Below, piece by piece: positions 29,195 to 64,000 of a DNA stretch of 64,000 bases; the stretch's first letter is position 1, and each line of letters opens with the position of its first letter. Both the position numbers and the translations under genes were made by a program. This DNA comes from Azolla caroliniana (taxonomy: Eukaryota; Plantae; Polypodiophyta), in assembly GCA_043228905.1 (NCBI GenBank), contig JBHGNT010000009.1:13888001-13952000 (forward strand). The letters are read 5' to 3'. The notes beneath the pieces are model-generated. The model was not told the DNA's origin. It did no database searches and saw only the letters and a list, made by a program, of their open reading frames with translations.

Positions 29195-29915
29195 GACGAG
29201 TACTTTACATCCATTAATACTGATTTAGTACAGATAAAACACACAACACAGTACAATGTGTCCATGGAGAACACAACATGGATTAAAAGACAATTAGTAC
29301 AAACTCTTCAATATAGGATAGTACTATGAGTACAAGACATGTACTTTACATCCTTCAATAAATACTGATATAGTACAGATACAACACACAGTACAATACA
29401 ATGTGTCCATGGAGAACACTCAACATGGATTAAAAGATAATTAGTACAAACTCTTCAATATAGGATAGTACTATGAGTATAAGACATGTACTTTACATCC
29501 TTCAATAAATACTGATTTAGTACAGATACAACACAGTACAATACAGTGTGTCCATGGAGAACACTCAACATGGATTAAAAGATAATTAGTATAAACTCTT
29601 AAGGACAGACAATACTATGAGTACAAGACGAGTACTTTACATCCTTCAATAAATACTGATTTAGTACAGATACAACACACAATACAATACAATGTGTCCA
29701 TGGAGAGCACTCAACATGGACTAAAAGATACTTAGTACAAACTCTTAAGAACGACCAATACTATGAGTACAAGACGAGTACTTTACATCCTTCAATAAAT
29801 ACTAATTTAGTATAGATACAACACACAACACAATACAATTTTTCTATGGAGAACACTTCACATGGATTAAAAGATAATAAACACAGATTCACGTGACAGG
29901 ATGGTACTATGTGAT
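29195..29915. repeat. Tandem repeat, ~145-bp unit, 5 copies
   Basis: GTACTTTACATCC recurs at 29200, 29341, 29488, 29632 and 29778. Confidence 0.92.
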
Positions 29916-30104
29916 CAATCAAGAACACTTAACATAGTTACAAACATAATTAGTATGTATGCATCCATTTGAATAGTACTGTGTTTGAATAGTTACAAAC
30001 ATAATTAGTATGCATGCACTAACACAAGAATTACTTCCTTGGACGTTGCATTATAAGTACTAAACATATGGATTAAAAATTACCTGGCGATAAAGTAGAA
30101 TGAT

Positions 30105-31735
30105 CGTGCCGGCACCATCAGACCAAACCCAATGACGGTTAAAGCTAAACCCTAGAGACAATAAATCTGCATGGTGAAGCTTAAAACAATGTTGAACAAA
30201 TAGTGTATCATGCTTTTTATCATCTGAAATGTAAAATATTGATTTCTTATGTAACTCACCGTCTTGTCTCCAATAGCAAATATGTACAAGTATTGTACAT
30301 TGATCATTGTACCAATGCATTGATTGAACCTCATTTTGAACTTTAAATGTATAGTTTTCTTCAAAGTCAATAACGGATACGATGACACCCGTTGGTAAGT
30401 TATTAATACATTCCTTGAACTGTGAATTTTGCCAATAAATCCAGAAGTTATGTGGAATGAAGTCACCAAGTTGTTTCTTAAATTCTGAGACAAGGGTAGC
30501 AACACATGTCTCCTTATATACTTCCTTGATACGCTTAGTTACAAGTTCCTTGCCAATATTTTCAGTCATAATCTCTAAATATTTCCATTTCACAATATGA
30601 TTGTTTCCCAAATCAAGCTCCTGCCTACAAAATAATGGTAGCGGACAAACCTTACATGTTCTTAAAAGACATGTACGACGATGCCACTCACATGATGGTT
30701 CTTTTTCACAAACACAAGATCTCCATAACTCAGAAACGAATGCATAAGTCATGTTTCGTGCATTACACCTATTATCCTCCCCATTTGGTCTACAAACCTC
30801 ACAAGTGCAGACACATAATTCCTCGTGTATACCCTTAGAATCAGTATGCATTGCATTCACTCCAAGCCTTAACATGTCCATCTTCACGTGGTACACACAA
30901 CAACATGTATTCCTCTCATTTAATTTTCTAACATAATATGGTTACAAACCTTGGAACTTGCGGAATCCAACAGTCAAGCTTGGATGTTGGTCTTTAAAGT
31001 TCATGTACAATTCAGCCTACATCAACCAATATATATAGCAAACATTAATATACACTTGGTCAAAACAAAAATTTATGGAATGTGAATTGATATAAAAAAA
31101 TGGAATACCTCCATCATCTCCAAGAAGTGTCTAGGGTGAATCTGGTACTTACCCTAACTTATTCGTTGTCTACACACGTCCTTCTTATTTGGTGAGACAT
31201 AGGTATTTTTTGCCCAAAATGAATCCACTTTCTCAATAATCTCTTGAGATAAGGCATCGCATCGTCGTCTACGTCCCAACCCCAACCACTTGAATTGGCT
31301 TGAGTGTATATTTCGGCGATGTTTCCTCAAGTTCCTTCTTTGAATACCCAGGGCTAAGGCAACTTTAGTATCACTATATTTTTTTTCTCTCGCATTGTTC
31401 ACAACCATGTGTAGGGCTGCCCTCTTTGTAGCAAGTTTGTCTATGCTCTCTACACCTTTCACTAAGTCTAGGGATGACTTCATAGACTTTACAATCTCTT
31501 CTGAAACACATTGGTCCCTAAATTTTATTCTCCCCATGTCTTCATTCAAACGTTGATGGTGTAACACTCTACATATAATATCCCTACGATCCTCTTCACC
31601 AAATCTCTTCGTTATTTCTACCAAATAACGGACTATGTGAAGAATCACTCGTCTCTTGGTCCTTTCAGATATACATGAGTTACTTGACAACTCACTCTCG
31701 TTGGGGATCCCCATTTGGTCACTAGATTTATCCAA
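30105..31735 (-). pseudogene. Sola2-like DDD transposase remnant with a spliceosomal intron (31017-31108)
   Basis: Motifs ELY..FK..HP...VGF, RNTCCVYH, C..CKVC, IDFEENY, QNEVQSMHW, ISDDKKHD and WSDGA. Removing the GT...AG intron keeps the frame. Two in-frame stops; C-terminus missing. Confidence 0.7.
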
Positions 31736-31955
31736 AAAAATTAAGTGTCTTGCGAGAGTAGTTAATGTTATATAGACTACACTAAGAAATCACAATCAAA
31801 TGTTTTTAAATGCGGCTTGCAAAGTGAGAAATAATTCATTTCGGACATTAGAATTACGGATCAAAGATGACAATTATCATTTCTTTATTCACAAATTTCT
31901 AAAAAAGGAAAAATTTAGTACTGAAAATGAAAAAATAGTTCTGAAATTTAGTACT

Positions 31956-32230
31956 GGAAAGGAACCTCCAATGGTGGAGGGAGCAGAGCATTGAATATGT
32001 GTGATATGCCGTCTCGATTTGGTGGAAGGAACCTCCAATGGTGGAGGGAGCGTTAAATCTGTGTGATATGCCGCCTCGATTTGGTGGAATGAACCTCCAA
32101 TGGTGGAGTGAGCCTTGAATTTGTGTGATATGCCACCTCGATTTGGTGGAAGGAACCTCCAATGGTGGAGGGAGCCTTGAATCTTTGTGATCTTTGTGAT
32201 ATGTTGCCTCAATTCGGTGGAAGGATCCTC
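31956..32230. repeat. Tandem repeat, ~62-bp unit, ~4.5 copies (probable subterminal repeat of the DNA transposon)
   Basis: GAACCTCCAATGGTGGAG recurs near 31961, 32028, 32090 and 32152. Confidence 0.88.
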
Positions 32231-32804
32231 GTCTCAGTGGAAAAAGCCTCAAATCCCTGCGAGATAAACTGCAATCAGTGGAAGAAGCAAGAAAATCGTT
32301 CTCGAAGAAGTCACTATTGGCTGTTATAAGAGGCCTCAGAACAATCTCTAATCCTCAACTCAAACCCTAAAACAGAAACCCTAACAAAACAAGAAATCCA
32401 CAACTCAAAACCAGAAACCTGACATGGATGTTTGAGATATGCTCCCTAAACCCTAACGAATGCTATACATTGGAGGAAAACTAGAAGCCTGACATGAATG
32501 TCTGTGATGAAGAGCTCAGAGGGATAGATGAAGAGGAGGAGTTGGTTTGAGGGGAAGCGCCAAAAACGACGTGAGGGGAAAATAGCCTCCAAAATGGAAA
32601 GAACATCTCCTCACATGTTCCCCCACTCCTTGTCTTAAATGACACTTGTACTACACTCACCCCACTCCCCAAAATCGTTTTTTTTTTCTCTGATTTTTTT
32701 TCTTAATTATTTAGTACTAACAATATCGAAAGGACTAACATTTTTTGTGGCCAAAAACAATACTTTTCTGGTACACCGTAGCGTGCTTCCACCCAACTAC
32801 TTCT

Positions 32805-33060: not shown

Positions 33061-36000
33061 GGCGTTGAACCGATTTAGTTCAAAATAATGCCTTGTGCCT
33101 CCTTTCCCCCCCTTTAAAACGATGAGTGTCACGAGTCGTTTCGGATTGAGGACCTGGTTTATCTAGATATTGACGATGGAAGTCTTCAAGAAGAGCACGA
33201 GCATTGGTCACATTCTCTATTGGTTCCCAAGTACGCTCGCTGGGACATTATCCTAGCCAATCAACTAAATAGTAGAGCTTGTTGCGAACAATCTTGGAAT
33301 TGAGGATGGCGGCAACCTCGTACTCAGGTCCATCTTCAAGTTCGATCGCGGGTGGACTTTGTGGAATACGTCCTGGGATGGTGCTGCCTTGATAGGGTTC
33401 AAGGAGAGAACTATGAAACACTGGATGTATGTGAAGTTGTGGGGGTAGATCGAGACGAAAAACGACATCATTAATCTTTCCGATAATACGAAAAGGACCT
33501 AGTCGCCGATAATCCAACTTCTCACATGGCCGAGTAGTCTTGATGTGTTGTCGTAGTAGCCATACCCGATCTCCAATGTTAAAACTGGATGGAAGCTGAT
33601 GACGATCCTCATAAACCTTGTGTGTTTGTTGAGCTTGATGTAGATGAGTAGATAAATCTGCTTGTATCTTGCATAACCGTTCCAAACAATCCGCTGCGCA
33701 ACGATTTGTGGGTAACTCTAGGGTTTCAAATACACACCACTGGGGGTGACAACTAGTATAAGCATAAAATGGCGTAACTTTAGTCGATGAGTGGACAGAG
33801 TTATTATAGGCAAATTCGGCAAAGTGGAGAATATCCGCCCAATCATCCTGATGATAGCTTAGAAAGCACCGAAGATACTGCTCCAGTGTTTGATTTGTTC
33901 GTTCTGTTTGGTTGTCGGTTTGTGGGTGGTAGCTGGAGGAGAGGTTACAAGTGACCTTGAGCATTTTAAAAAGGTGCTTCCAGAATTTCAAGGCGAACTG
34001 GTTTCCACGGTTGCTGATGATATTATCAGGAAGGCCATGATGCCGACATACTTCACACATGACAATTTCGGCGGTTTCTTCACTGGAGATTTCCTTAGTA
34101 CATGGCAGGAAAAGAGCCATCTTCGTATATCGATCTACTACTGTTAAAATTGCATTGAATCCCTTAGAGACTGGAAGATCTGTGATGAAATCTAGAGCAA
34201 TGGATTGCCACGGCTTGCTTGGAATTGGTAATGGTTCTAATAAACCATATGGATGATGCCTTGGCATTTTTGCTCTGCAACATGCATCACAAGTCTGAAC
34301 AAAATCTTCGACCAATTGTCGCATATAGGGCCACCAGAATGATTGTTGTACTAAATCGAATGTATTAGTACTACCAAAATGCCCAACTGTATATGTGTCA
34401 TGATAGTTTTGGACTACTTGAAGGCCACAAGAACCATTAGGAACATACAAGAGTTTCTTAAAGAATAGTAATCCATCATGACATTCGAATTGTCGATAGT
34501 CCGTACCTGGTTGTTGCGATTGTGAACAAGATGCTCGAGAGGGATCAATTTGTGCTAGAATGGCTTGGGCGAAAGCATCTGTCTTCAATTCCTCACGTAT
34601 TGTATCGATAACTTGGGAATCCAAGGGCATGCCGAAGACCTGTGTTGCTTGTAGTCGTGCCGATCCCAAGTTTACTTGCTTTTGGTTATCGAAAGCTGGC
34701 TCGCTGGGACGCGATGCTAGATATGAACGCCGTGATAATGCATCTGCCTTCCCTTGGTGCTTCCCCGGATGATATGTAATTTTGAAGTCAAAACGCATGA
34801 GGAATTGGGCCCACCAAGCTTGACGTCGATTTAACACATGAACACTTTGAAAGTAGGCAAGGTTTTTGTGATCACTGAATACGGTGACTTGATGAGAGGA
34901 TCCCTCTAGAAAATGCCTCCATTGCGTAAAAGAGTCCACTATTGCTGATAGTTCCTTATCATGAATTTCATAGTTGATTTCGGCGGCGTTAAACTTGCGT
35001 GAGTGGAAAGCCATAGGATGTAGCTTTTCATCATTACCTTGTTGTGACAGAGTGCTACCCAATGCGAAATCCGACGCGTCCGCTTCCATGATGAATGGTT
35101 TTTCCGGATCAACGTGAGCTAGAATAGGAGCCGATGTAAATGCCTTCTTAAGATTCTCAAAAGCGATGTCCTCTTCTTCAGACCAAATGAACGATTGTCC
35201 CTTCTTAGTAAGTTGTGTGAGAGGCAGAACAAGCTTTGAGTAATCCTATATAAACTTGCGGTAGAAATTGACAAAGCCTAAAAAGCATTGCACATCTCGC
35301 AATGAACGCGGAGTTTGCCACTCGACCACCATTTTGATCTTAGCTAGATCCATGGAGATGCCTTCAGAGGAGATGACATAGCCCAGAAATTCCACTTGGT
35401 TGCACCCGAAACTACATTTTTCCAGCTTTGCATAAAGACCATGTTCTCAAAGTCGTTTTAGTACTAACAATACATGAGAATCATGCTCTTCTTGGGTCTT
35501 CGAATAAACCAGTAGATCATCCAAATAGATGATAAAAAAAACATCCAAGAGATCTCAGAAGATATCATTTGCCATGTGTTGGAAGACTGCTGGCGCATTA
35601 GTGAGGCCGAACGGCATGACCATATACTCGAAGTGCCCATATTTGGTGCGAAACGTGGTCTTCCATTCATCTCCTGGTCATATCCGTACGAGGTTATATG
35701 CTCCCCGTAAGTCGATCTTAGTGAAGAACCTTGCACCATTGATCCGTTCTAAAAGACTTGAGATAAGGGGAAGTGCATACCTATTTCTGATGGTGACCTT
35801 ATTGAAGCCACAATAATCTACAATGAGACAAAGTGATCCATCCTTTTTCTTGACGAAGAAAATGGGTGCGCCAGCTGGAGATTTCGAATGCCGAATGAAG
35901 CCACTTTCCAAATTGTCCTCTATATAGGGTCAAAGGACTTCTAGCTCGGTTGGTGACAAATTGTAAATCGGTCCCCATGGTGGCTCTTTTCCCGGTTATA

Positions 36001-47044: not shown

Positions 47045-50000
47045 AAAAGGTATTGCAAGTGTTGACGGTGCCAACGCGAGTCAAGGATTTGGTTGACCTC
47101 GTATTCCTCCCCTATCGGAAATTGTACAGGTGGTGGTGGAGGGGCTTGACGTCCTAGGAGTTGTGAAGCATAATGGGGTTCGAGGATGGAGACATGAAAA
47201 ACATCATGAATCCGGAAGTGGGATGGAAGGGTGAGCCGGAAGGTGACAAGATTGATGCACTCGATGATATGGAATGGTCCCAACTTCTTGTAATCAAGTT
47301 TCGCACATGGACGAATAGTAGAGATGTGTCGACGTAACAACCAGACCATGTCTCCAATGACAAAGTGTGGAGTGGCAGATCGATGGCGATCAGCCTGCTT
47401 CTTATATTGTTCACTAGCAAGACTAAGCTCCAAGGATAAATCATGATGTAGTTCTTCCAAAATGCGAGCACGAGCCTCCGCCGAAGGGTTCACGGAAGTG
47501 GTAGGAAGGGAAATGTTGAAGCGAGGATGTAAACCATAGTTCGGAAAGAAGGGAGTGACGCTAGTCGATGCATGGAGAGAATTATTGTAGGCGAATTCCG
47601 CGAGCGAAAGTAAGTTGACCCAATCATCTTGTTGGTAACTAACAGAGCACTGAAGATATTGCTAAGGATTTGGTTGACACACTCCGTTTGCCCGTCAGTT
47701 TGGGGGTGATAAGCAGATGACAACTTGAAAGAGATGCCTAAAGTTTGTAGCAGGCGCTGCCAAAGGTGAGAGACAAACTGGGGTCCGCGATCAGAGATGA
47801 CATCATCGGGGGGAGTCCATGCAAGCGTACCACATTGTTGAGTAGTAGATGTACCATTCCTTCTCCGGAAATGGTTTTGGAGCATGGAGTGAAGTGAGCC
47901 ATCTTCGTAAACCGATTGACAATGACCAACACCGAGTCATAGCTATTGACCAAGGGTAGATCAGTTATTAGGTCCATAGAGATAGAGGCCCAAGGACGAC
48001 AAGGACATGGAAGTGGCTATAGTAAGCCGTATGGCCGATGATGAATGGCTTTGGAGCGAGCACAAACCTCACAACTCTTTATGTATTCTTTGACCAACTT
48101 CCATGGTTGTGGCCACCAATACCCCCGAGAGATTAGCTCGAGGGTTTTCGCGACCCCGAAATGACCTGCAAGTGGGTCATCGTTGCATTCCCACAACACT
48201 CGGGTGCGACGTGGGCCCTCTGGGACGTATAAGAGATGATCTCGGAACAACAAACCCTCTCGTATGGTGAATGTGTCAAGATCCTTCCTTTTGGTCGCCT
48301 TGGAGGGGTTTTGCAGACTATCTCGAATCTCATTGGCGAACGCATCGGTCTTGGTGTTGGGATTTCGGTCCCTCCGGATGGGATGTCCGGAGATGAATGA
48401 CGGCAAGCCCGGTTGCGGTTACGGAACCGGATGATGAAGAGTACCCGGCATGAAGCCGGATGAAGAGTACCCGGCTACGGATCCGGATGATGAAGACCCC
48501 GGCTACGGAGCCGGATGACGAATGTACCCGGAGAGAGATCCGGATGCGGGGACATATTTGTGAATATGTTTGCCAAGGGCCCTTGAGGCTATATTTGTAA
48601 ATAGCCCGAAAGTCATATGTGTATAAATATGACTTAGGGCAAACAGTTTTGATGTTGTTGCTCATTTTATGTTTTTCAGCCGAGAGAGCGAAGTGAGAGC
48701 AGCCGAGAGAGAGATAGAGAGAGAAAGGAAGAGGTCGACGCCTCTGTGTATTACCGCCGCCTGTGGCGAAGATAGTGAGCTCAAGGTTGTTGCCTTTGTA
48801 GCTTCACCATTGTACATCTCTGTGTATAGTGATAGTTGGAGTTTGAGGACTCCCGTGGTTTTTTTCCCATTTAGGGTTTTCCACGTAAAACATCATGTGT
48901 ACTCTTCTCTCTATTGTCTTCGTGCATTTTGTATTTCCTGTTTTCTGTGAGTTGATCCTATTCCTCGGTTGTGGCCGAGCACTGTGTTCAACAAAGTGGT
49001 ACCGAAGTGAAGGGGGAGTTTGTTGGGATTTCGGTCCCTCCGAATGGGATGTCCGGAGATGAATGACGGCAAGCCCGGTTGCGGTTACGGAACCGGATGA
49101 TGAAGAGTACCCGGCATGAAGCCGGATGAAGAGTACCCGGCATGAAGCCGGATGAAGAGTACCCGGCTACGGATCCGGATGATGAAGACCCCGGCTACGG
49201 AGCCGGATGACGAATGTACCCGGAGAGAGATCCGGATGCGGGGACATATTTGTGAATATGTTTGCCAAGGGCCCTTGAGGCTATATTTGTAAATAGCCCG
49301 AAAGTCATATGTGTATAAATATGACTTAGGGCAAACAGTTTTGATGTTGTTGCTCATTTTATGTTTTTCAGCCGAGAGAGCGAAGTGAGAGCAGCCGAGA
49401 GAGAGATAGAGAGAGAAAGGAAGAGGTCGACGCCTCTGTGTATTACCGCCGCCTGTGGCGAAGATAGTGAGCTCAAGGTTGTTGCCTTTGTAGCTTCACC
49501 ATTGTACATCTCTGTGTATAGTGATAGTTGGAGTTTGAGGACTCCCGTGGTTTTTTTCCCATTTAGGGTTTTCCACGTAAAACATCATGTGTACTCTTCT
49601 CTCTATTGTCTTCGTGCATTTTGTATTTCCTGTTTTCTGTGAGTTGATCCTATTCCTCGGTTGTGGCCGAGCACTGTGTTCAACACTTGGATGCATCAGT
49701 GATCTGTTGGAGTAATGAATCATCCTGCAACATACAAGTGGCAAAAAGATCCAATTGGTCGGGTTTCAACAAACGTCTAGATCGTTGAGCATAAGCAGCA
49801 TCCCCAGGGCGGAGTGCAAGGTCAGCTTGGCGAGAAAGGGCATCGGCCTTCCCATGTTGGTCACCAGGTCGAAATATGATCTCAAAATCGTAGTCGACGA
49901 GAAATGTTGACCAACGGGCCTGCCTTCGATTCAAAGTACGAGTGGTGGAAAAATAAACTAAATTTTTATGATCAGTCACTACCTAGACACGATGTTGTGC

Positions 50001-52414
50001 GCAGGCCAAGTAGGGTCGCCATTCTTCAAAGGCAGCAATGATAGCCGCAAGCTCCTTGTCGTATATGGGATAATTGATTTCGGATGCCGTGAATTTTCAG
50101 GAGTAGTAAGCCATTGGGTGCATTAGGTTGGTGTCGTCTGCCTGGGATAAGATGGCACCAATGGTGAAGTCAGAGGCATCAGTTTTGACTTGGAAGGGTT
50201 TTGTGGGGTCGGCATGTAGCAGCACCGAGGCAATGATGAATGCGTGTTTGAGTGAGTCGAACGCATTTTGCGCCTCCGAGGTCCATAAAAATGGAGTGCC
50301 TTTATGGGTGAGAGCGATAAGAGGTTGTGCTAGGGTGGAAAACCCCTTGATGAAGCGACGATAAAAATTCGCGAAGACGAGGAAGGATTGCACATCTTTA
50401 AGTCGCCTTGGAGTCGCCCATGCCTGAATGACAGAGACCTTCTTCATATCCATAGTGATGCCAATGGGCGAGATGATGTAGCCCAGAAATTCAATCGAGG
50501 TACGGTCGAACTCACATTTCTCGCCTTTGGCATAAAGGCCATGCTCACGAAGTTTAGCAAGAACTAATCGAACTTGGCGAGTGTGCTCCTCCATTTTGGC
50601 GAGAAAATGAGAATATCATCGAGGTAAATGACAACAAAATGATCAAGATATTCCCGGAATATATCGTTCATCATATGTTGAAAAACTGTTGGAGCGTTAG
50701 TAAGACCAAAAGGCATTACCTTGTATTCGAAATGCCCATACCGTATTCGAAATGTGGTTTTCCATTCATCCCCTGGCTTGATGTGTACTAGATTGTACGC
50801 TCCACGTAGATCAACTTTGGAGAAGACACGCACAACTCGGAGCCGATCAAGGAGTTCGGGGATCAGAGGTAGCGGATAGCGGTTGCGCACAGTGAGTTTG
50901 TTGAGACCTCGGTAGTTGACGCATAAGCGTAGATAGTCGTCCTTCTTCACAAATAAAATGGGGGCCCCGGTTGGTGACTTAGAAGGTTGAATAAATCCTT
51001 TCTCGAGGTTCTCATCGAGATACACACGAAGGGCCTTCAACTCTGGTGCAGACAACGCATATAGAGGACCAAAGGGTGGACACGCACCTTCTTGAAGATC
51101 AATCAGACAGTCGTAGAGCCGGTGTTCAGGCAAACGATAGGCATTACATTTTCCAAATACGTCGGAGAAGTGTTGGTATTTGTCGGGAATAACATGGAGT
51201 GTGTTAGAAACGGCGCCACAAACAAACCCATCCTGGACCGATGATGGGGTAGTCAAATCGGAATCCGAAGGATGGGAAACTGAGTTTACCTTCATACTTT
51301 TGCACGAGCATCCTGGCTTGCTAAATGTGATCGAGTGGTTGCACCAATCCACTATTGGATTGTGCGCCTCCAACCACGTTAGTCCTAAGACGATCAGATG
51401 TCGAGGAGATGCAATGAGGTAAAAGGTGAGCTCCTCCTAGTGTGAGCCCACACAAAGCCCTAATGGGATTGTAGCTTGAGTAATTGCACCTGATGAGAGG
51501 ACGCACCCGTCGATGGCTTCAACAGGAATGGGTTTTGAGAGGCCAACGACAGGTACTCCATGTGCTTGGGCAAACACGATGTCGATGAAGCAAGAAGATG
51601 CCCCAGAATCAAGTAAAGCAACAGACTGAATGGAACTAGAGTTAAATGAAAGCCATACCTCCAATGTCAAATTTCCTGATGGTCTGGCAATGGAACCAAG
51701 AGAATGTGGGCGAGGGGAGATGTCCAGTTGCATGGCTCCTACTGCAACCGAACGATGTCGTTTTTCCGGATGTTGGAGTCCGTTAGCTCGATGGAATTGT
51801 GGGCGATTACTCCTAGGACAATGGCGAACAACATGACTAAAGGCGCCACAATACATGCACAAGCCATTAGCCCGCCAAAATTGTCGTCATCAGTCAATGA
51901 ACGAAATTGGGCTTGATCAATTTCCATGGGGACAGGAGCATCTACCAAAGCAGGGGAGTGTGACGCAATCGGTGGGGGGGATGGTTGGGATTGTATGACC
52001 GGGGCGTGTCATGGAAGTGAATGAGGTGGAACCCAAGTTCGGCGCTCTTCTTGGCGAAATTCGAAAAGACAATTGTCACAATGGACTGCTTGTGAAATCG
52101 CTTGGGATAACGAGGTGGGCTCCGGAAAGTTTAAGAGAAGATTCTTGACATTGCTTCGAAGGCCGCGCCGAAAGTGATCAACTAAAGCTTGATCATCCCA
52201 ATTGACATTGCATGCTAGTTGTCGAAATTCTGAAGCATAGACCGAAGCTGCACGCGAACCTTGTTCAAGTGCAAAAATCTTGTTAAGAGTTGTACGTCGT
52301 CGGTCCGTCTCTCCAAATGTGGCCTCTAACTCAGTGAGGAAGGCGGGAAAGTCCTCCAATAGAGGTGAAGAGGTTTCTACCAATGGTGTAAACTGTTGGG
52401 GACAAGGCCGTCAA
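47045..52414 (-). pseudogene. gag-pol: Tcn1-like gypsy gag-pol (gag, PR, RT, RH, IN, chromodomain), cut by three insertions
   Basis: Motifs [39 protein letters not shown] and EEYEVNQILDSR. Confidence 0.92.
48355..49685 (+). mobile_element. Two-LTR element with a 27-bp internal region (copia-type termini)
   Basis: LTRs 48355-48993 and 49021-49685. Interior AAGTGGTACCGAAGTGAAGGGGGAGTT. TSD CTTGG at 48350-48354 and 49686-49690; removing the insert restores the host frame (TDASKTDA). Confidence 0.95.
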
Positions 52415-52479
52415 TGTAGAAGTGCAAGCAACATTCTGTTTGAAGAATAACCTATGTATGCATGAGCAAGATAGACACA

Positions 52480-52517
<38 letters not shown>

Positions 52518-53101
52518 CACAAAGGAAACGTTATATTCCAATAGCAACAGTTACAAATGACAACCAACCTTCACTAAAGGTTACAAAGTCACTTTATATA
52601 GTGACTATCCTAGGGCAACTGCCCTTTATGCTATTTACAGAAATAGCCCGAACTTGGGCTTGTTGCCGATTAGGAACACGGTCCTCGGTCAGTCCTTTGA
52701 CCTAGACCTCCAAGTGGGTGTGGAACAACGAATAGGCGTCTAAGCGTAATGCGTAGGGGAATGTTCCCTGTAACCTATCAGCGTATAAGGGAGACGGCTA
52801 CAACCGAATCCATAGCAAAGGTTACCCTTACGTTCTTACACGCTTAGGTCTTCAAGACACACACAATGGATTAGCCGTAGCTATACACAGAGAATCAGAG
52901 AAGATAGAATTCTATTATGAGACGTTTCTTACATTCCCAAAATTACATGCTCTCTCTATCAGAGGTTTTCTGCCCTTTATATACGCAGGGTCTATTTAGC
53001 CATTCACGCTTCCTACGTGAACCGTTACATGCGTTATGATCTTATATTATTTCTTATTCCTACGCTCTTGTCCGTCAGTTACTATTCCGGCGGACAACAC
53101 C

Positions 53102-53141
53102 TGGCACGCCTGTGGGACAGTGCCCTGGCACATCGAACCCA
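53102..53141 (+). promoter_or_regulatory. tRNA-Arg-type primer-binding site, bipartite, antisense to pol
   Basis: TGGCACGCCTGTGGGAC-[AGTGCCCTGGCACA]-TCGAACCCA, starting 2 nt after the LTR terminal CA. Confidence 0.7.
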
Positions 53142-53146
53142 TCCCG

Positions 53147-56104
53147 TTAATCCTCTTCCAAAATGGCCCGGATGTTTGGCTCTACTGCGGTGTCCGCGTC
53201 CAGAGGTGACGTAGGGCCCGTAGGTGCATCGTGGTGTGGCTCCCCTTTTTGGTCGGGCTGGTTTCTCCTGGAGTCACAGTCGCCATGTGTGGGCGGTCCG
53301 GGTACGGTGGGCTCTTCTTGAGCTAGTGGGTTGGGCTCCGCCGTTGTCGTGCTTGCAGTCGGTTGCGGCTCTGCCTCCATTGTTACGTCCTCCGTGGTGT
53401 CAGCCGTTTTTGTGCGTTCCGGGGAGTGGGGCGGAGATTCCGCCTAGCCCGCACCGTTCTCTGTGTGGTCCGATGATAGCGTGGGCTCGTGCGGATGAAC
53501 CTCCTCTTGTGTAGTGGTTTCGTTGTTTGGTCCTATGGGGGACTCCGCTCGTCGGTCCACGCTGTTCTCCATCATTGTCATATCTGGTGATCGGGCATGA
53601 GGTTCCTCTTCTTCGGTCGTGCCCGGAATTGGCATCGCGTTGGATTCCTCGTTTGTGCGCGTGTTGCCGGCTTGTGTGATCTGGTGAAATAGCTCTTCCT
53701 GGCTTTCACCAAAATCATCTAAGAGTTGCGCAATTTCTTCGGAGTGTTGGTCCGCTAGTGCACGATAGTCTTGCGCTAGGTCCTCTCGTACGGCCGCAAT
53801 GCTCTCCTCATTTAGTTTATAGAAACCTCGGCCGTCTTTTCGCCGGTTATCCCAATCCGCATGATACGCGTGCAATTCCGCTGCTTGGGTTGCCCACGCC
53901 ATCCATCCTTTGTCCAACGCCGTTTTCAATTGCGTTGTGAACCTCTCCCGATTTGTTTGGAGAAAGATACACACGTTATCTGTGATGGCCTGGCAACGGT
54001 TGCATGCATCCTCCATCGACTTCTGGAGGTTTGCGATTTCTTGTTGTCTAACCGCCGCCACTTCTTCGTACGTGGCCTTCAGGCCCGCCCACAGCTAGGA
54101 TTCCTTTGCATGTTGTTCTTCTAATTTCCCCATTTCATTGTTTAGGTGGACTTCGAGCTGATGCCTTCTGTCTTGTTCGACCACCAACTGCTCGTCGAAC
54201 CATACCTTCTTTTTTTCTAATAAGGCCCGGAGTCCCGCGATTGCCGCCTCCGATTTCTTCGCGTCCTCTCGTAATTGGGCGTTTTCGTCTTTTGTCCGGA
54301 TGTGCTAAGCTACCTCTGTAGCGAGTTTCTCTTCAAGGGTTTTTACTGTCTTACGGCCGTTAGCCCGTATCTCCTTTTCTCTGTCTGAGGATTGGTGTAG
54401 TTCTGCTCGAAGGCGGTCAATTTCTGATTCCGCTAGTTGCACGGCCCTTTTCGCTTTTGAGGCGATGGTGGTCTGAGCCTCAATTTCTTCCTTTAAAGCG
54501 TCAATGGCGTGGTTTGGTGGCGGAGTTGCATGTTGCACCATAGCCGCATGAGTTTCCAACTCCGCGATGCGTTCGTTGGCTTTTTGTAGTTCGACTTGGG
54601 TCAGTTTCACCTTCTTCCAGACATTCTTATTTTTTATGGCCATCTCCTTGGCACCCGTGGTGACCTTTGCCAGTTCCCGATGGACTTCGACTAGGGCCGT
54701 GTTTAATGGGGGTATCTCCATCATCACTCGGCGTACCCCGGCATTCCTCTGTCTGCCGACCTTAGCTAACTGGTCCTGATCGTCGCTCTCTGTCGTTTGT
54801 GTTAGGGCGCGCTCAATCATCTGGCGTTCCTCATGCTCTTCGGCCATTCGTTGGGCGGCTTTTACCTGTTGTGTTGCCAGGAACTCCATGAGCTCAAAAG
54901 AAGTGCCGAACTGTAAGAGGGCGTTGAACTCATTGGCCGTATCCGGGATATCTGGATATGCCAAGACCTCGCTTTCCGTCGTCAATACGGCTTTCCCTCG
55001 TTGGGACTGGGTCGTAATGATCGGTCGTGGCTCCCGGATGATTTCGAAGGTGGTATTGGGTTCCATAGCTGCGGAGCCATTGCCTTCAGTCGGTGTTTCT
55101 GTTGTTGTGGGAACGTTTTTGACCAACCCCTGCCCATCTTTCTTGTCCAATCTACGTCGTTTCGGTCTAGGGCTATCCTGCCATGTTTCAGTGTTTGGCT
55201 CTGGGGCTGCTTCCATGGAACGTACCAGTTGTTCCTCCTGCGTTGTCCGTGTGTCTGGCTGGTCGGTAGGTGGTGTTGTCCTTGGGTCAGGCTGGGCGGG
55301 TTGGGGTTCCTCTTCCCACTCTGGGGCCGATACCTCCGCTAACCTGTGCTTCATGGATCGGGGCGGGGGCGTGGGCCGACTAGGCTGCGGTGCCAGCAGG
55401 CCTCGGGGTGGAAATAGTACCGTAAGGTACTGTTGTATGATCGGCTTGAGCTTTTTGCCTGCCTGTTACGCATGCAGGCCTTCTCTTAATGTCGGCCCTA
55501 TGATGACCTCCCAATCGACCGCGCACCCCTCAAAGGTATCGATAATGATGCTTGCCTTCTGCTTAGGCATCCCATATGCGTTGACATGTACGCAACCAAC
55601 TTCTAGCAGGAACTTGGCAACTTCACGGAAGAAGGGATCCAGAATCTGCTTGGTTCTATAGGCCTTGGTGGAGGAGGAATATGGCCCAAAATATCGTTGC
55701 AGCGCCTCTGCAAGAGGGATGTCGAAATGCCTTTCGCCTAGCGATGATGGGTCCAACTTCTTCCGGATGGAGGAGTTGGTGATCGTGTCTATATTAAGAT
55801 TCCTGGCGATGTCCATGGCCTCCGGGTGTGGGGGTGCTTCTACGACCTGGATGTACCCATCCAAGCGTTTCTCCACGAGCCATCGGCGTAAAGAAGTAGA
55901 GATGAAGATCATCATCGCCAGAGGAGGTTCGTGGGAAGGAGACTGGTGGTTGCGGTGGGCTGTAGCTGTGTGATAGTATGGAGGAGAAGGTGAGGGGGGG
56001 GAACGATGGAAGCGTTGATAGCTAGAAGATAAGTTTCTATTTTGTGCAGAAAATCTTCTGTTTCCTTCTTTTTGTGGCTTAGGCTTCATTGGGCGGTGAG
56101 CCAT
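53147..56104 (-). pseudogene. Extra ~985-codon ORF downstream of integrase (globular N-terminal domain, long coiled coil, acidic/Pro-rich tail)
   Basis: ORFs 55466-56104, 54305-55354, 53444-54061 and 53147-53380 share one frame and are separated only by TAA/TAG codons consistent with CAA/CAG deamination. Confidence 0.8.
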
Positions 56105-57412
56105 CGTGGTGTCGCGTGTTCTTGAACTAGGAGTTTGTGCATGTCTTTAGTCGTTTTAATAGTCACTATCTTCTCCCTTTTTTTTTTCTTTTTTTCTTGC
56201 GTAACGGTTATCTACAACTATTTTTACATTATGTTACAAGTGGGGCCGCTCATTTACGGTGCAGGTTCTCCGGCTCTGTCCTGTTCAGCGGTGAATGGGT
56301 TAGGTGGCGTATGGCCCAGGTAAGGTTTGAGACGAAACCCATTCACCTTTTGCCGGACTACTTCCCCGGCCAGCATACCTAGTTGGAACTTGTCTTGTTC
56401 CGCTCCAATTATCCAGTCTGGGCCGGTCCAGCGGAATCGTAACTTCCCCGGCATATGGCCCATGCGAGTTTGGAATACCAGCACTGCTGGACCCACGGCA
56501 AACTCCTTTTCCCTTGCGTGCCGATGTCGATCCACAAACGCTTTACGCCGTCGTTGTTCCTGTTCCAACACAGCCATGTTGTGGACGCGTTTTTCCCCTA
56601 GTTCGAGGAGTTGGTGGAGCCGTACCTCCTCCGACTTGGCTTCTGATAGTCGGTGTCGTACCTGAATTCGCAAACTAGGTACCTGAAATTCGACCGGCAT
56701 CACAGCCTCCAGCCCAAACGCTAGTCGAAATGGTGTTGACTGTATGCTTGTTTTGTAGCTGGTTTTGTACGCCCATAACGCACTTTGTAGTTTGGTATCC
56801 CAGTCCGTTGTCGTGAAGAATTTCGGCCAGAGGCGGAAACCGGGAAACATTGGCTACATCGGCGGGGTGCAGTGTGTGTACGCACCCATGTACATTTAGT
56901 GTGAATAACGAGGGCGCCTTTATGGCGCCGAAGAGTAGTCAAGTCGGGACAGGCGGTCCCATGTAAGTCGGGGTTTATCCCACATTGTAACGCATCCCTG
57001 TCCTTGTTCTATAAAAGGAAGGGAACGCCCTTTGTGAAAGGGTTGCCCATTTTGCATTAGAGGGTATACCGTTAGGTTTAGAGTTAGTTTCTTCTTCTTC
57101 TTCTCCCCCTTCGTGTTCGCTTAAGGTTTGCTTCAGCTCATCTCCTGCGTAAGACCTCGCTCGGCGCGACGAGCCCGTGAGCTCCCCGACCGGCGGCTTG
57201 GCAGCTGACGACTATTGTAACCTACCTCGGTCTTGCTCGACGCCGGGAATGTATTCTTCTTTTATATATATATATACGTTTGCGTCTGTCTGTGTATATT
57301 CGCGTCTTCGTTGGTGTCGGGTGCTTCCCCCTTCCTGCATTTCCTGTACTTAAGGGTGTGAGTCGGGTTGGCCTGTGTGTGTGTGAGTGTGTATGCGTGA
57401 GTCGGTGTTAAA

Positions 57413-57457
<45 letters not shown>

Positions 57458-57621
57458 GTTGCTTCCGGTGTGCTTCTGGGATGCCCCGGAGACGGTGAAG
57501 CACGACTTCCTACGCTCCATCACTCCCTAGTCCAAGACCCCCGTGGTCCCGCCTTTCTCCACGCACGCGTGTAACAACGCGACATCTTTGGTGAACCCGA
57601 CGTGAAAGGCGGCAAGGGAGG

Positions 57622-58557
57622 ATGGAGTTAGAAGACAACGACCTTGCGGAGATGGTGGCCGAAGTGGTGTTGGAGTTGGCACGAGTGGTGATGAGGCGAG
57701 AAGCAGCGCAACAAGCGGCTGAGCGAGTGGTCGAAAGAGTCGGCCGTTTCAACGGGGACAAAGTCCCATCTTACTTGGAAGCCTACAACACGGAAATGGA
57801 GGAGCGTGGCGTAGATGAGGAGTTAAGGCTGGAGTTCTTCTGTCGGGTCGTGGTTGTCCGGATGCATGCCGAGATAAAGGAGCTCCGTGAGGCTCATAGT
57901 TCGTGGGAGGCCTTCAAAGAGGCGCTCCTGAAGGCATACGGAGGACGGCGGAAGAGCCGAGGACGGCACGACTTCGACCAGTGGGTAGCATCGGCAAAGA
58001 CCCACCGGGGCGCTGCCAAGGCGTTTCGAGAGTTCGAGCGGCGGCTTGCTCGGCTCCCGGAGCGGGAACAAGGTTTGGTGGGGGCGGACAAGGTCCTATT
58101 GTTCGTCAGGTCGATCGACCGAGCGGAACGGGAGGCCATCGGAATTGAGCTCAAAGACGATGATGGAGCGAATGGGCTTACGGAGGACTGGTCGAAGGTC
58201 GGAAGGGTGTGCCAACGGCTAGACAACGAGCGAGCCGAGAAGGCTAAGAGGAAGGTACGCGACGGCGTGCCATCACAGCGGGAAGAGGCCGAACGGCAAA
58301 GAGAGTCGGCAAGCGTCGGCGTTGGGGCCAGGATTGCGGAGGCGTACGCAGCTCTCGAGGCGATGCTCGAGGAAGAGGAAAGATGGAGGCCGCAAGCCGA
58401 GACTGAGAAGACGGACTTGCCCCACGCGACGGCGGAAGATCGGTACGATGGTACCACGGGAGAGGGTGCGGAACGAAACGCCCTCTCAACTTGCGGAGAT
58501 AGAACGGCCAAGGACGAGGCCGAGATACAGATCGCGGAACCGGAACGTTGGGACTAG
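57622..58557 (+). CDS. gag: Ty3/gypsy-type Gag/capsid-like protein, 311 aa
   Basis: Open ORF just after the PBS. RFNGDKVPSYLEAY...SWEAFKEALLKAY resembles a retrotransposon capsid N-terminus. Confidence 0.7.
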   Translation: MELEDNDLAEMVAEVVLELARVVMRREAAQQAAERVVERVGRFNGDKVPSYLEAYNTEMEERGVDEELRLEFFCRVVVVRMHAEIKELREAHSSWEAFKEALLKAYGGRRKSRGRHDFDQWVASAKTHRGAAKAFREFERRLARLPEREQGLVGADKVLLFVRSIDRAEREAIGIELKDDDGANGLTEDWSKVGRVCQRLDNERAEKAKRKVRDGVPSQREEAERQRESASVGVGARIAEAYAALEAMLEEEERWRPQAETEKTDLPHATAEDRYDGTTGEGAERNALSTCGDRTAKDEAEIQIAEPERWD

Positions 58558-59460
58558 CGGTTTCGGGCGTGTCAGCCCGAGATCCCGGTCATTGGAGAAG
58601 CAAGCCCAGACGGGGCTTGCGCGATCGGTAAGAAGATGACCGCCGACCACGAAGAGTCGGTGGCTACGGACAAGGGCGTAAAACGGACGGGCAATTCTTT
58701 GTGTCTTCCTACACTTGCTCCCGAGACGATGGCAATCGGGCCCGAGTGCCCACGTGAGTCCCAATCGAAGGAAGGCTGCGGCGAAAGGCCAAGAATCACC
58801 GACGAGACGATACGGGGAAGGAATGGACGAAAGCCCACGGACCCGATTCTGGAGAACTCGGCATTCGGGCCCGTATGCCCATGTAAGACCGAGGAGATGG
58901 ATGGCGGTACCGAGGAGTCCTGGCACGATGCCAGCGAAGATGGATGGGAAATGGCCTATGAGGAGGCCGAGGATGGACGCGGCACGAGGAGATCGGCATT
59001 TCGATACGGGTGGAGCATGATCCGGTCGTGGATCGTTTGATCAGGGCCGGATTCGGCGTGAAAGTGCCGATACAGAAGGGGGTGCGGGACGAGCCGCCTC
59101 TTTTACATGGGGAGAAAGACCGACCGGGCGAAGGTCGAGAGTTGGAAGGAGAATGAAAGCCGGTCCTATGGAGTTCCTTACACCGATCCGGCTACCGGCC
59201 CGAGTGCCGGCGTGAGTCCTATAAGAGAGATCGGTGGCGACAGGAGAACGGGACTCGGCAATCCGGAGAATGACGAACGGACCCGAGTGAGAACGGGGCA
59301 GAGCGGACTCCCGGATGACCATTCCAGGAGGGAGGAAGAGAGTTGGCCTACGAAGAGGCCGAGGACACGGTACGTCGGTACCACGGGAGAGGGTGCGGAA
59401 CAAAACGCCCTCTCGGCATGCGGAAAAGGACGACCCGGGACAGGGTCGGGAAGACAAATC

Positions 59461-59817
59461 GGAGGTCTACGGAGGATCCTTCACACCGGTTCTAGAGACT
59501 TCGGCAGTCGGCAACATGGTCTACGTAAGACCAAGATACTGACGGTGGCGGTGAGGTGACGAAGGCAAAGGGGCTACGGATGGGCGGTCTACGGAGGATC
59601 CTTCACACCGGTTCTAGAGACTTCGGCAGTCGGCAACGCGGTCGACGTAAGACCAAGATACTGACGGTGGCGGCGAGGTGACGAAGGCAAAGGGGCTATG
59701 GATCGGAGGTCTATGGAGGATCCTTCACACCGGTTCTAGAGACTTCGGCAGTCGGCAACGCGGTCGACGTAAGACCAAGATACTGACGGTGGCGGCAAGG
59801 TGACGAAGGCAAAGGGC
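59461..59817. repeat. 122-bp tandem repeat x3, plus a partial copy at ~60740-60830
   Basis: GTCTA(C/T)GGAGGATCCTTCACACCGGTTCTAGAGAC recurs at 59465, 59587 and 59709. Confidence 0.92.
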
Positions 59818-61684
59818 GTAAGGAAGTCCGGTCCTACGGGATCCCCACACTTAACTAGAGACTCTGGCAGTTCGGCCAACGTGGCAACATGAGACTGAGA
59901 GAGAAGGTTGGTGGCGGCGGGAAACGGAACCCGACTACGTGGAAGATACGAGGAGAGTCCAGGAGGGACTCAAACAAAAGACACCCGAATTTCGGCAAGC
60001 ATAGAAACGGAGTCCGGTCCTATGGGACCCTCACACCGATCCGGAGACCCCGGCTGATCGGCCAACACGGCAACGTGAGACCGATGGAGAAGGACGGTGG
60101 CGGCAAGGAATGGGACCCGACGACACGAGGTTTCGGAAGGAGCCGGTAGGGGCAAACACGGGGAGGTGTGTCAAGCCGGAAAGGCACACCTGGGACAGAA
60201 CAAGAGTCTCGCAAGTGGCCATCGCGGGCCGGATCTAAGCGTGACTACGGGACGGTGTTCGGCGCGGGCGGGGCCGAACGAAGGAAGCGGAAGACGGCAC
60301 AAGGGAGGTGCCGGGAACGAGGTGACAAGTGCCTAGTGGACTGCACAGGGTCGGAGTCAGGGGATGGCAAGAGAGGCCGGAGGAGGATCCTCCACACTCG
60401 CTTCGTAGATCTCGGTAGCTCTGTCGAAGTAGCAAAGACTGACACGGCAAGCCGGGATGACAAGCTGGTGGGGGCGAGGGGACGACGGCAAACGGAAGAC
60501 TCAGGACCTGTTACAGCAACACGAAGACGGGAAGGGCCATGCGGGCTACTATGGGGTGTTCCTCGGATGCAAAGGACACCAGTATGCGGGGAGCGACGAT
60601 GCACGATCTGGCCGGAAAAGGGGCCGACAAGGCGTTCAATGAACCGGAGTACGATACAGGCAGTGCCAAACAACGGACGAGGGTATGTGGCACACAGAGG
60701 TGCCGGAGCGGGAAGGCGAGCGCGGAGAAGACCGAAAAGGGATCCTTCACACCGGTTCTAGAGACTTCGACAGTCGGCAACGCGGTCGACGTAAGACCAA
60801 GATACTGACAGTGGCGGCGAGAGGACAAGGGCATACGACGGGAGCGGGGCGTTCATACGGCCGAACAAGGGCCAGCGGAAGTACGCGTGCAGAGGACCCA
60901 TCGACAGGTCGAACGAGCCTACGGGGAGGTAAGCGCGAAGGAAGAATCGAAGCCGACGGATCAAACTGGCAGCGAGCCGGGATGCGGATCACGGAAGACC
61001 GGTTTCTCACCAGCCGAAATCTCTCACCCTTCAACCGGACTTGGCACATACCGGTGGATGTGCGGTTAGGTGGGGGCGGATGTCGTGAAGAATTTCGGCC
61101 AGAGGCAGAAACCGAGAAACATTGGCTACATCGGCGGGGTGCAGCGTGTGTACGCACCCATGTACATTTAGTGTGAATAACGAGGGCACCTTTATGGCGC
61201 CGAAGAGTAGTCAAGTCGGGACAGGCGGTCCCATGTAAGTCGGGGTTTATCCCACATTGTAACGCATCCCTGTCCTTGTTCTATAAAAGGAAGGGAACGC
61301 CCTTTGTGAAAGGGTTGCCCATTTTGCATTAGAGGGTATACCGTTAGGTTTAGAGTTAGTTTCTTCTTCTTCTTCTCCCCCTTCGTGTTCGCTTAGGGTT
61401 TGCTTCAGCTCATCTCCTGCGCAAGACCCCGCTCGGCGCGACGAGCCCGTGAGCTCCCCGACCGGCGGCTTGGCAGCTGACGACTATTGTAACCTACCTC
61501 GGTCTTGCTCGACGCCGGGAATGTATTCTTCTTTTATATATATATATACGTTTGCGTCTGTCTGTGTATATTCGCGTCTTCGTTGGTGTCGGGTGCTTCC
61601 CCCTTCCTGCATTTCCTGTACTTAAGGGTGTGAGTCGGGTTGGCCTGTGTGTGTGTGAGTGTGTGTGCATGAGTCGGTGTTAAA

Positions 61685-61723
<39 letters not shown>

Positions 61724-61850
61724 GTTGCTTCCGGTATGCTTCTGGGATGCCCCGGAGACGGTGAAGCACGACTTCCTACTCTCCATCACTCCCTAGTCCA
61801 AGACCCCCGTGGTCCCGACTTTCTTCACGCACGCGCGTAACAACGCGACA

Positions 61851-64000
61851 CCGTTCTATTTTCATTGACGATTTTCTTCAAAATGGTCTGCAACGTCTTG
61901 TTGGTGGATTCTGCTAATCCATTCGCCTGCGGATAATATGGCGTATTCTTCTTATGGACTACGGAGTAATGATGTGTTAATTCTCGAACAACCCTATTGA
62001 GAAAGTGGCTCCCCTGGTCACTAATAAGCTCAATCAGACAACTGAACCGGCACCAGATGTGCTCGTAAAGGAATCTGGCTGTGACGACTGCCGTATTTTC
62101 ACGTAGTGCCTTTGCTTCTACCCATTTTGTGCAATAATCCATGGTTACCAATATGTATTTATTGCCCGTACGGGCTGCCGCCAGTGTGAAGGGCCCCACA
62201 AAATCCAATCCCCACTTTTGGAAGGGGTCTAGCGGTAATACGGGCTGGTGTGGCATCCTTGCGCCCTCCGCGGGTTGTCCCATCCGTTGACACAAATCAC
62301 ACTTTCTACAATACGCGGATGCGTCCTTCTGCGTTGTTGGCCACCATAGGCCTGCCTGCCATACTTTCCGGGCTGTAATGTCACCCGCGTAATGGCCACC
62401 TGCCGTGGCGCAGTGTGCCTCTCGTAAAACTGCTTCCTTCTCATCCAGTCGTACCCCACGTCGCCAAATGCCGTCACTGCCTTTGTGATATAAAACACCT
62501 TCGACGAGGTAGGAGTGAGGGCTTCGGATGGCTAGTCGTTTCTTCTCGTCCGTGCGTAATTGTGGTGGAGGCAGTCCCGTAGTCAAAAAGTACGTCATTT
62601 CCATAAGCCACCGGTCCGAAAAGGTCGATTTTGTTTCTTTCTGCTAGTGTCGCTACCTGCAAGATATCGGCTTCCGGAAAATCGTCGTCATCTTTCTGTA
62701 TTGTTTCTCCATTCTCGAGTTTGCTCAAAAAATCTGCCATTGCGTGTTGCGTCCCTAGTCAGTGTTGGATTACGAAATCGAATTCCTGGAGCAGCAGCAT
62801 CCACCATGCCAATTTCCCTGTCAGGGCTTGTTTCTCCACCAAATATAGTAGCGCCGAATGATCCACGTGGAACGTGAATTTCCTTCCTAATAAATAGTGC
62901 CGGAATTTATTGATGCTATAGATCATCCCTAGCCCCTCCCGCTCCGTTGTGGAGTAGTTACGCTCTGTTGTTGATAATTTGCGACTAGTGTAGTATATTG
63001 GCCGGTACCAGCTTGGTTCGGTGAGCTGCATTAGTGCACTTCCTATTGCTATGTCTGAGGCGTCGACGAACACGTGGAATGGCTTCCCCCAAACTGGTGG
63101 TTGTACGACGGGAGCCTGTGTGAGCATTATCTTAAGTGCCTCGTAGGCCTTATCCTCCGTTGCAGTCCATTGGAAAGGAGTCTGATGTACTGTAGCGTGT
63201 AACGGCGTGGCGAAGTCTGCCAAATACCGTATCATCCGACTATGCCATCGTATTTGTCCCAAAAACCGGTTGAGTGATTTGGCGTTTGTCGGAGTGTTGG
63301 CTTGCGTAATCGCAGAGATTTTGTTCAGGTCAACCGCTATTCCCTCCTTGCTGACTATATGGCCCAGGAGAGTCACACTGGTCACGCCAAAAGCACATTT
63401 CGCGATATTCAAGCTTAAGCGTGTGGTGGGGCAATGTTCCAGGCACAGTTGTAAGTGTAAAAAATAGTCTATTGTTCTCCCATATACCGCAAAGTCATCT
63501 AAAAAAACTTGCATGAACCCCGGAATGTATTCCCCAAAGATCTCTGTAATATTCCGTTGAAATGTTGTCGGCGCCGTCTTTAGCCCGAACATCATGACGA
63601 CTGCCACATATACTCCCTAGTCCATGACAAATGTCGTCTTTTCTTGGTCCTCGGGATGCATGCGTACCTGGTTATAGCCACTGAAGCCATCTAAAAAATT
63701 GTACATCTCATGGCCTGCGACGGCGTCCAATACGCTATCCGTGAAGGGTAAGGGAAATGCGTCTGTAATGGTGACGGCGTTTAATTTTCGGTAATCTACG
63801 CATACCCGTATTTTGCCGTTTTTCTTTGGAACGACCACTATCGGGCTTAACCATCTCGCTTGTTTAACTGGTCGTATGAACCCCGCCTTCAGGAGCTTGT
63901 CAATTTCTTCTTTCACGCGGGTCACGTAGTTCGGGTTCATGCGGTAGCGGCGCTGCTAAACGGGTTTCGCGTCGGTTGCTAAATTGATCTTATGCTGATA
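61851..64000 (-). pseudogene. pol: gypsy pol (RT, RNase H, integrase) of the non-chromoviral element
   Basis: ORFs 63617-63940, 62759-63607 and 61825-62604. The frame joins 56808 (NENRT|DWDTKL) once the nested element is removed. Confidence 0.93.

Follow-up and report, generated by a model that had tools for sequence, protein, structure and literature searches.

An inverted, two-part tRNA-Arg site at the polypurine-tract position of a high-copy, Athila-related gypsy retrotransposon of Azolla caroliniana

Priming of the second DNA strand from a polypurine tract (PPT) is regarded as general for retroviruses and LTR retrotransposons in the available parts of two accounts (PMC5371799, PMC10085805). 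At one LTR junction in a 64,000-nt stretch of Azolla caroliniana DNA, referred to here as the window, a sequence complementary to a tRNA was found at the position of the PPT, on the strand opposite to pol. This locus raises three questions: which element the junction belongs to, whether its layout is an accident of rearrangement or a trait of a family, and what might start the plus strand there.

The element and its LTR

The window was found to be a nest of plant LTR retrotransposons, and no tRNA gene was detected in its 64 kb. The junction belongs to the 3' end of a gypsy retrotransposon that is Athila-related and high-copy, and Table 1 collects the features found there. Reverse transcriptase (RT), RNase H (RH) and integrase (INT) were all identified on the minus strand with Pfam, and the gypsy order RT-RH-INT is present in the element (Pfam, tblastn). 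The integrase is split by a nested element at 56810-61850, and the tblastn match to the proteins P0122 and P0123 carries on across this insert. The two pieces of pol are therefore one gene, of the same element as the extra ORF. The nested element itself has LTRs that are 97% identical, three 122-nt tandem repeats, a TGGTGAACCC primer site and a gag-like ORF without a Pfam match; no pol was found in it, and it is probably non-autonomous.

The stop codon of the extra ORF lies a few bases ahead of the tRNA-Arg site. A protein of 1072 aa (P0274) matches this ORF and has the same terminal residues, ILEED. No Pfam family scored above the cut-off for the extra ORF, and its Atlas leads, to Transposase_32 and ATHILA clusters, have scores of 0.81-0.82 that fall under the reliable range. 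In a more distant relative (P0132), about 500 additional residues are fused behind the integrase, an extension that may represent an extra ORF read in the pol frame. A 30-nt purine tract is present on the pol strand at 56169-56198, between the integrase and the extra ORF; its role could be that of an internal primer, a promoter or a splice signal.

Table 1 Features at the 3' end of the element, with positions in the window.
Feature	Positions	Strand	Evidence or remark
Expected target-site duplication (TSD) TAAAC	52389..52393	+	LTR start and host gag frame; partner copy beyond the window
3' LTR, 706 bp, TG...CA, pol-strand polarity	52394..53099	-	
CT repeat near the U5 end of the LTR	52479..52517	-	Sequence (GA run on plus)
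TATA-like box 2, TATATAAAG	52592..52600	-	Sequence
TATA-like box 1, TATATAAAG	52975..52983	-	Sequence; 118 nt from the tRNA site
2-nt spacer between LTR end and tRNA site	53100..53101	+	CA exactly 2 nt before TGG in 32/34 family matches
Site part 1, TGGCACGCCTGTGGGAC, complement of CCA, acceptor 3' strand and T-stem 3' strand	53102..53118	+	
Looped-out hairpin, 4-bp stem, facing the tRNA T loop	53119..53132	+	Covariation, duplex fold
Site part 2, TCGAACCCA, complement of T loop and T-stem 5' strand	53133..53141	+	
Extra ORF, same sense as pol and downstream of it	53147..56146	-	Roughly 1000 codons, with internal stops and a frameshift
Integrase, C-terminal part	56254..56809	-	tblastn, 65-71% to P0122/P0123
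Nested LTR element, unrelated, interrupting the integrase	56810..61850	+	TSD CCGTT on both sides
RT - RNase H - integrase, broken	61851..64000	-	Pfam, tblastn; runs on past the window end

The sequence-only reading of this locus had assigned pol, the extra ORF and the polarity of the LTR to the minus strand, and the Pfam domains of pol agree with this, with the TATA boxes and the CT repeat found where it had placed them. Its LTR start (52415) and its expected TSD (GTCAA) had to be corrected. In the contigs of four sequencing runs aligned to 52365-52478, matching starts, depth climbs and loose ends cluster at 52393-52394 in all four runs. This places the LTR start at 52394, which makes the LTR 21 bp longer, puts GTCAA inside it and leaves TAAAC as the expected TSD. 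The family LTR opens at 52394 with TGTTGGGG. The insertion site of the element is in the gag of a different gypsy element (Retrotrans_gag, Pfam), and the host gag frame resumes at the TSD position. No second copy of the LTR was found in the window, which holds only the one at 52394-53099. The deepest coverage bins of the examined stretch lie in the LTR, and all 30 bins from LTR to integrase were covered in 4/4 runs, which come from four studies; the family is therefore high-copy. A diverged contig spans 53070-53235. Pol-strand TATA boxes were found in 13 of the 17 family LTRs with enough sequence, non-coding relatives included, and TATA boxes on the other strand in 1 of the 17.

No PPT was found at this junction, as the letters had first suggested. 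On the pol strand, the 25 nt leading up to the LTR contain purine runs of at most 3, compared with longest runs of 9, 5, 9 and 10 by the same 25-nt measure in four ordinary elements of the window.

Other structures were observed elsewhere in the window. A complete miniature element at 48355-49685, which sits in the integrase of its host element, has two LTRs of about 640-665 bp that are 96% identical, with CTTGG flanking both ends. Its LTRs are only about 27 nt apart, with a purine tract and a primer-like TGG site in the gap. A tandem array of about five 145-bp units occupies 29195-29911, and three minus-strand ORFs without a Pfam match are found at 30060-32354, downstream of a gypsy pol (33248-35245).

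The tRNA-Arg site, its hairpin and its relatives

The plus strand at the junction reads, in order, the LTR end ...AACA (53099), the spacer CC, TGGCACGCCTGTGGGAC, a 14-nt insert and TCGAACCCA. The inverted bipartite tRNA site claimed beside the LTR is thus present, its blocks, spacer and insert all being read in the sequence. Part 1 pairs at 16 of 17 positions here and at 17 of 17 in four relatives; one tRNA base stays unpaired. We considered this fixed unpaired base as a sign that the site is not recopied from the tRNA and set it aside as weak: the first-strand primer-binding site (PBS) of Ty3 is not recopied either, as far as the available part of the literature goes. Part 2 forms a match run of 9 nt here and of 8-12 nt in relatives. 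The hairpin opens past the 18th base from the tRNA 3' end, and 18 bases from that end is the usual extent of a retroviral PBS.

The assignment to tRNA-Arg(UCU), which the sequence-only reading had made, was supported when both site parts were matched to a gene: one GTDB contig carries a gene with the matching 3' half, and ARAGORN identified it as tRNA-Arg(UCU). This gene is bacterial and serves as a stand-in for that of the host. With the stand-in tRNA, the tRNA-site duplex is predicted at -52 to -58 kcal/mol in 8/8 sites folded, while the site alone folds at -8 to -17 kcal/mol, both computed with RNA parameters.

Relatives were collected from metagenomes with a scan for the two tRNA blocks separated by a free gap of 1-30 nt, with no CA end, insert length or hairpin required. 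The scan gave 44 matches in 43 loci. In 34 matches from 33 loci, a 17-nt first block is combined with a 13-14-nt insert, and 32 of these 34 have CA exactly 2 nt before TGG. As none of these properties was demanded by the scan, their recurrence in 34/44 and 32/34 matches is not chance. The remaining ten loci (L007, L009, L011, L014, L021, L023, L032, L037, L038 and L041) lack the insert length and were rejected as chance or unrelated. The 33 loci belong to one accession series of short-read, low-coverage contigs, some of them collapsed (L029, L039). Purine-run counts in the metagenome loci were not used as evidence on the PPT, because this would be circular: the loci were selected by the tRNA motif itself, and family copies bearing a PPT would go unsampled.

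The 30-nt LTR ends beside the site, compared in 32 sequences including that of the window, form 16 groups (about 15 across the loci). All 16 groups carry the site, so it is older than those families. The tblastn matches to gag-pol or the extra ORF were all on the strand opposite the Arg site, and a homologue of the extra ORF was found downstream in 14 of the 33 loci, always on the opposite strand. An HMM of the N terminus of the extra ORF matched 0 loci, most of which stop before that region. Viral contigs gave no match to the RT or the motifs, and genome contigs gave no match to the family motif.

The hairpin was then compared across 24 rows, comprising the window and 23 of the 33 loci with near-duplicates excluded. 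Of 96 cells, 91.7% are paired, with 14 double changes. The hairpin score was reached by 0 of 500 shuffles, a test that is inflated by the relatedness of the rows, and slid controls, which retain this relatedness, pair at 21-53%. The pattern of compensatory change indicates that the insert is a 4-bp hairpin under selection. It had been described as a 14-nt hairpin with a 5-bp stem; the insert stands, and the stem is reduced to 4 bp with a 4-nt loop. At the outer hairpin pair, both G-T and A-C wobbles occur, so that the wobble pairs point to neither strand as the one on which the hairpin acts.

These comparisons bear on whether the junction is an accident, in which an inversion or nesting event placed a 5' LTR with its PBS next to the inverted coding region of a different element. 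In favour of this, the window is densely nested and only a single LTR is in view. Against it, about 15 diverged LTR groups share the junction, with compensatory changes and with the extra ORF always opposite, each of the 30 bins between LTR and integrase has coverage in 4/4 runs, and the diverged contig extends over 53070-53235. We regard an accident as very improbable, and this reading as largely refuted. Two expectations of the earlier reading were settled in the same way: the layout does occur in many copies (33 metagenome loci, about 15 LTR-end groups), and inversion or nesting, named as what would overturn it, is unlikely for a junction common to 33 loci with diverged LTRs and with the extra ORF opposite in 14/33. 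The comparison of these loci indicates that the bipartite layout is a conserved, lineage-wide trait of the family and no one-off rearrangement.

A non-coding subfamily was also identified, which has an inward-facing TGGCACGCCC at its other junction. In L001, L004, L013, L016, L031, L040 and L043, all non-autonomous, the internal region lies between two inward-facing TGGCACGCCC sites, and it measures 1.8-3.6 kb in the six two-site contigs that were measured. Direct LTR pairs with an LTR end abutting unrelated flank were found in L016 and L040.

At L002:97-1161 and L005:2-1369 (oriented to the Arg site), family LTRs have inserted into pol sequence belonging to their own clade. Among the 24 loose ends inspected, out of about 3100, there were also joints that run from the LTR end into family sequence. 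This suggests that self-nesting is frequent in the family.

The opposite LTR junction and a model of priming

At the other LTR junction of the family, the plus strand reads ...GCTCTGATACCA-AA-TG, so that the pol strand has a TGG primer site there. The minus reading is CA-TT-TGGTATCAGAGC, a 12-mer identical to the primer site of two copia elements in the window, which we take to be a primer site of the tRNA-iMet type. The junction was reconstructed from the loose letters before 52394, which are a mix of insertion flanks and internal junction, with consensus ends of 30 letters. X5 (18 contigs, agreement 0.43) and X10 (7 contigs, 0.72) both have a consensus ending in GCTCTGATACCAAA, and that of X6 (4 contigs, 0.58) has this ending with one change; the consensus of X1 is blurred (18 contigs, 0.42). 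The pol-strand site is carried by three of the four sequencing runs, from different studies and under two organism labels, in short junction contigs that join the primer site to the LTR start, not to gag.

A PBS beside the 5' LTR on the coding strand was seen in these three runs, as a consensus, and in the metagenome locus L036. There, the far side of the LTR carries the start of gag and, between it and the LTR, a TGG site in the gag orientation. This site (L036:924-937, oriented to the Arg site) is a third 5' primer type, TGGCGACCA, with a 5-nt spacer ahead of gag. The 43 metagenome loci yielded no Met-type site, their pol-strand sites being Arg-type or TGGCGACCA-type. The 5' site is of the Met type in the family of the window and of the Arg type in the non-autonomous relatives. 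Across these sequences, the putative first-strand primer varies within the lineage and the Arg site is constant.

The sequence-only reading had offered two explanations, second-strand priming by a tRNA annealed to first-strand cDNA, or an antisense genome with a plus-strand PPT at the partner LTR. The TGG site on the minus strand at the partner junction (consensus, 3/4 runs) favours the former. The latter is unsupported, since the junction shows a TGG site and not a purine tract; no plus-strand purine tract was seen there in the loose-end consensus. What was observed in total is two inward-facing tRNA sites, a fixed 2-nt spacing, a covarying hairpin, one promoter polarity and no PPT in the copies examined.

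The Arg site has the polarity of the tRNA itself on pol-sense RNA, so pairing with the tRNA is possible only on minus-strand cDNA. On balance, we favour a model in which host tRNA-Arg anneals to minus-strand cDNA at the Arg site and primes the plus strand. Pol-sense RNA would first be transcribed from the 5' LTR, as the polarity of the TATA boxes and the CT repeat suggests, and minus-strand DNA would be primed by a tRNA at the ordinary 5' site described above. RNase H would then strip the RNA and expose the bipartite site on the cDNA. With the hairpin looped out, about 26-29 bases could pair with the CCA, acceptor strand and T arm of the tRNA, a pairing that is computed and a use that is proposed. 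RT would extend the CCA end across the 2-nt spacer into U3, setting the LTR end as a PPT does. The integrase might finally remove the 2 nt, by analogy with the end processing established for retroviral integrases.

A second tRNA would not be needed if the element supplied the primer in cis, its own tRNA-like RNA surviving RNase H, being cut after CCA and priming the plus strand. The pol-sense RNA does read T arm, acceptor strand and CCA, and the 3' end and the 2-nt spacing would be the same as with a host tRNA. However, no matching 5' acceptor strand was found within 120 nt in 32/32 loci checked, so the RNA is unable to fold a full tRNA mimic by itself. An RNA already paired with the cDNA would also need neither two-block identity to the tRNA nor a covarying hairpin that sets the register. 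We consider such a self-primer unlikely.

The constancy of the Arg site could also be read as a sign that the roles of the two sites are swapped, with an antisense transcript packaged, the Arg site priming the first strand and the pol-strand site the second. The Arg site is the most conserved feature and the 5' site varies between families, as expected if the former were the first-strand site, and it resembles the first-strand PBS of Ty1, with two segments and a small loop, in the accessible sections of PMC5371799. However, the LTR promoters face the pol way in 13/17 cases against 1/17, non-coding relatives included, and a separate full-length antisense RNA would be required. The chance that the roles are swapped appears small to us.

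It is about as doubtful that the tRNA is bound for another purpose, such as packaging, dimerisation, strand transfer or RNA stability, with the plus strand started from an internal or diffuse purine primer. The purine tract between the integrase and the extra ORF could be such a primer, and first-strand initiation in Ty3 uses a 3' tRNA contact in U3, according to the part of the Ty3 literature available. However, a site with the polarity of the tRNA on pol-sense RNA would not pair with a tRNA there, and an internal primer cannot set the U3 end, from which the CCA is a fixed 2 nt away.

Returning to priming by host tRNA-Arg on cDNA, a wider reading appears reasonably probable to us. A gypsy lineage of seedless plants, together with its non-autonomous parasites, may have dropped the PPT and come to use host tRNAs to prime both strands, one on RNA and the other on single-stranded cDNA through the hairpin-split site. 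The two ends would then be functionally symmetric, and either strand could in principle be the genome.

Relation to known elements and implications

The RT-RH region of the element is 76-78% to the metagenome proteins P0121-P0124 and about 40-43% identical to seed-plant relatives. In a quick tree of 58 rows, it groups with sequences of seed plants, ferns and liverworts in a non-chromovirus clade of 48 rows. Its position there is on a separate seedless-plant branch beside seed-plant sequences that we take to be Athila-like, a label inferred in a tree without REXdb references. Athila, in the available portions of PMC6317226 and PMC2844528, shares with the element the order gag-PR-RT-RH-INT and an extra ORF that follows pol ahead of the 3' LTR. 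As in Athila, no second RNase H and no chromodomain were found with Pfam in the full polyproteins P0122 and P0123. In contrast, the Athila primers described there are mostly tRNA-Asp/Asn, whereas the 5' site here is Met- or Arg-type, and the Athila PPT has a TTGGGG core, whereas an inverted tRNA site occupies the PPT position here. Because the PPT feature and the primer type of Athila were not found, the element is Athila-related and not Athila.

Other known systems share parts of the layout. Ty1 and Ty3 also use two-block pairing with the acceptor stem and T arm of a tRNA, and in Ty1 the blocks are split by a small loop. In the accessible part of PMC5371799, the genomic RNA carries both blocks as tRNA complements that serve to prime the first strand, and the plus strand is started from a PPT; in our element the bipartite site occupies the PPT position and lies on the opposite strand. 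Tat/Ogre/Retand elements, as far as the available text of PMC6317226 and PMC11963269 describes them, have tRNA-Arg primer sites and ORFs antisense to the PBS strand. They differ in an extra archaeal-type RNase H and in that only accessory ORFs are antisense, whereas here pol itself is opposite the Arg site. No second domain of the Tat type was found in P0122/P0123, and there is no room for one between RH and INT. Phygy and Selgy are likewise non-chromovirus gypsy lineages of seedless plants. By description only, in the portion of PMC6317226 available, they have a 4-bp TSD, tRNA-Trp and tRNA-Ala primers and no extra ORF, whereas our element has an extra ORF and other primers. We found no description of the layout in the literature available, mostly outside subscription journals, and the per-element table of PMC6317226 may list such elements.

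The layout has a practical consequence for annotation, as PBS-based methods would give these elements the wrong orientation and filters that rely on a PPT would overlook them. The site is a defined 40-nt sequence with mapped compensatory changes and is suited to in vitro testing. If the proposed priming is true, a successful, high-copy lineage without a PPT would show that RT can start on a DNA-bound tRNA, and that a second tRNA can define an LTR end. Host tRNA fragments could then regulate both priming steps.
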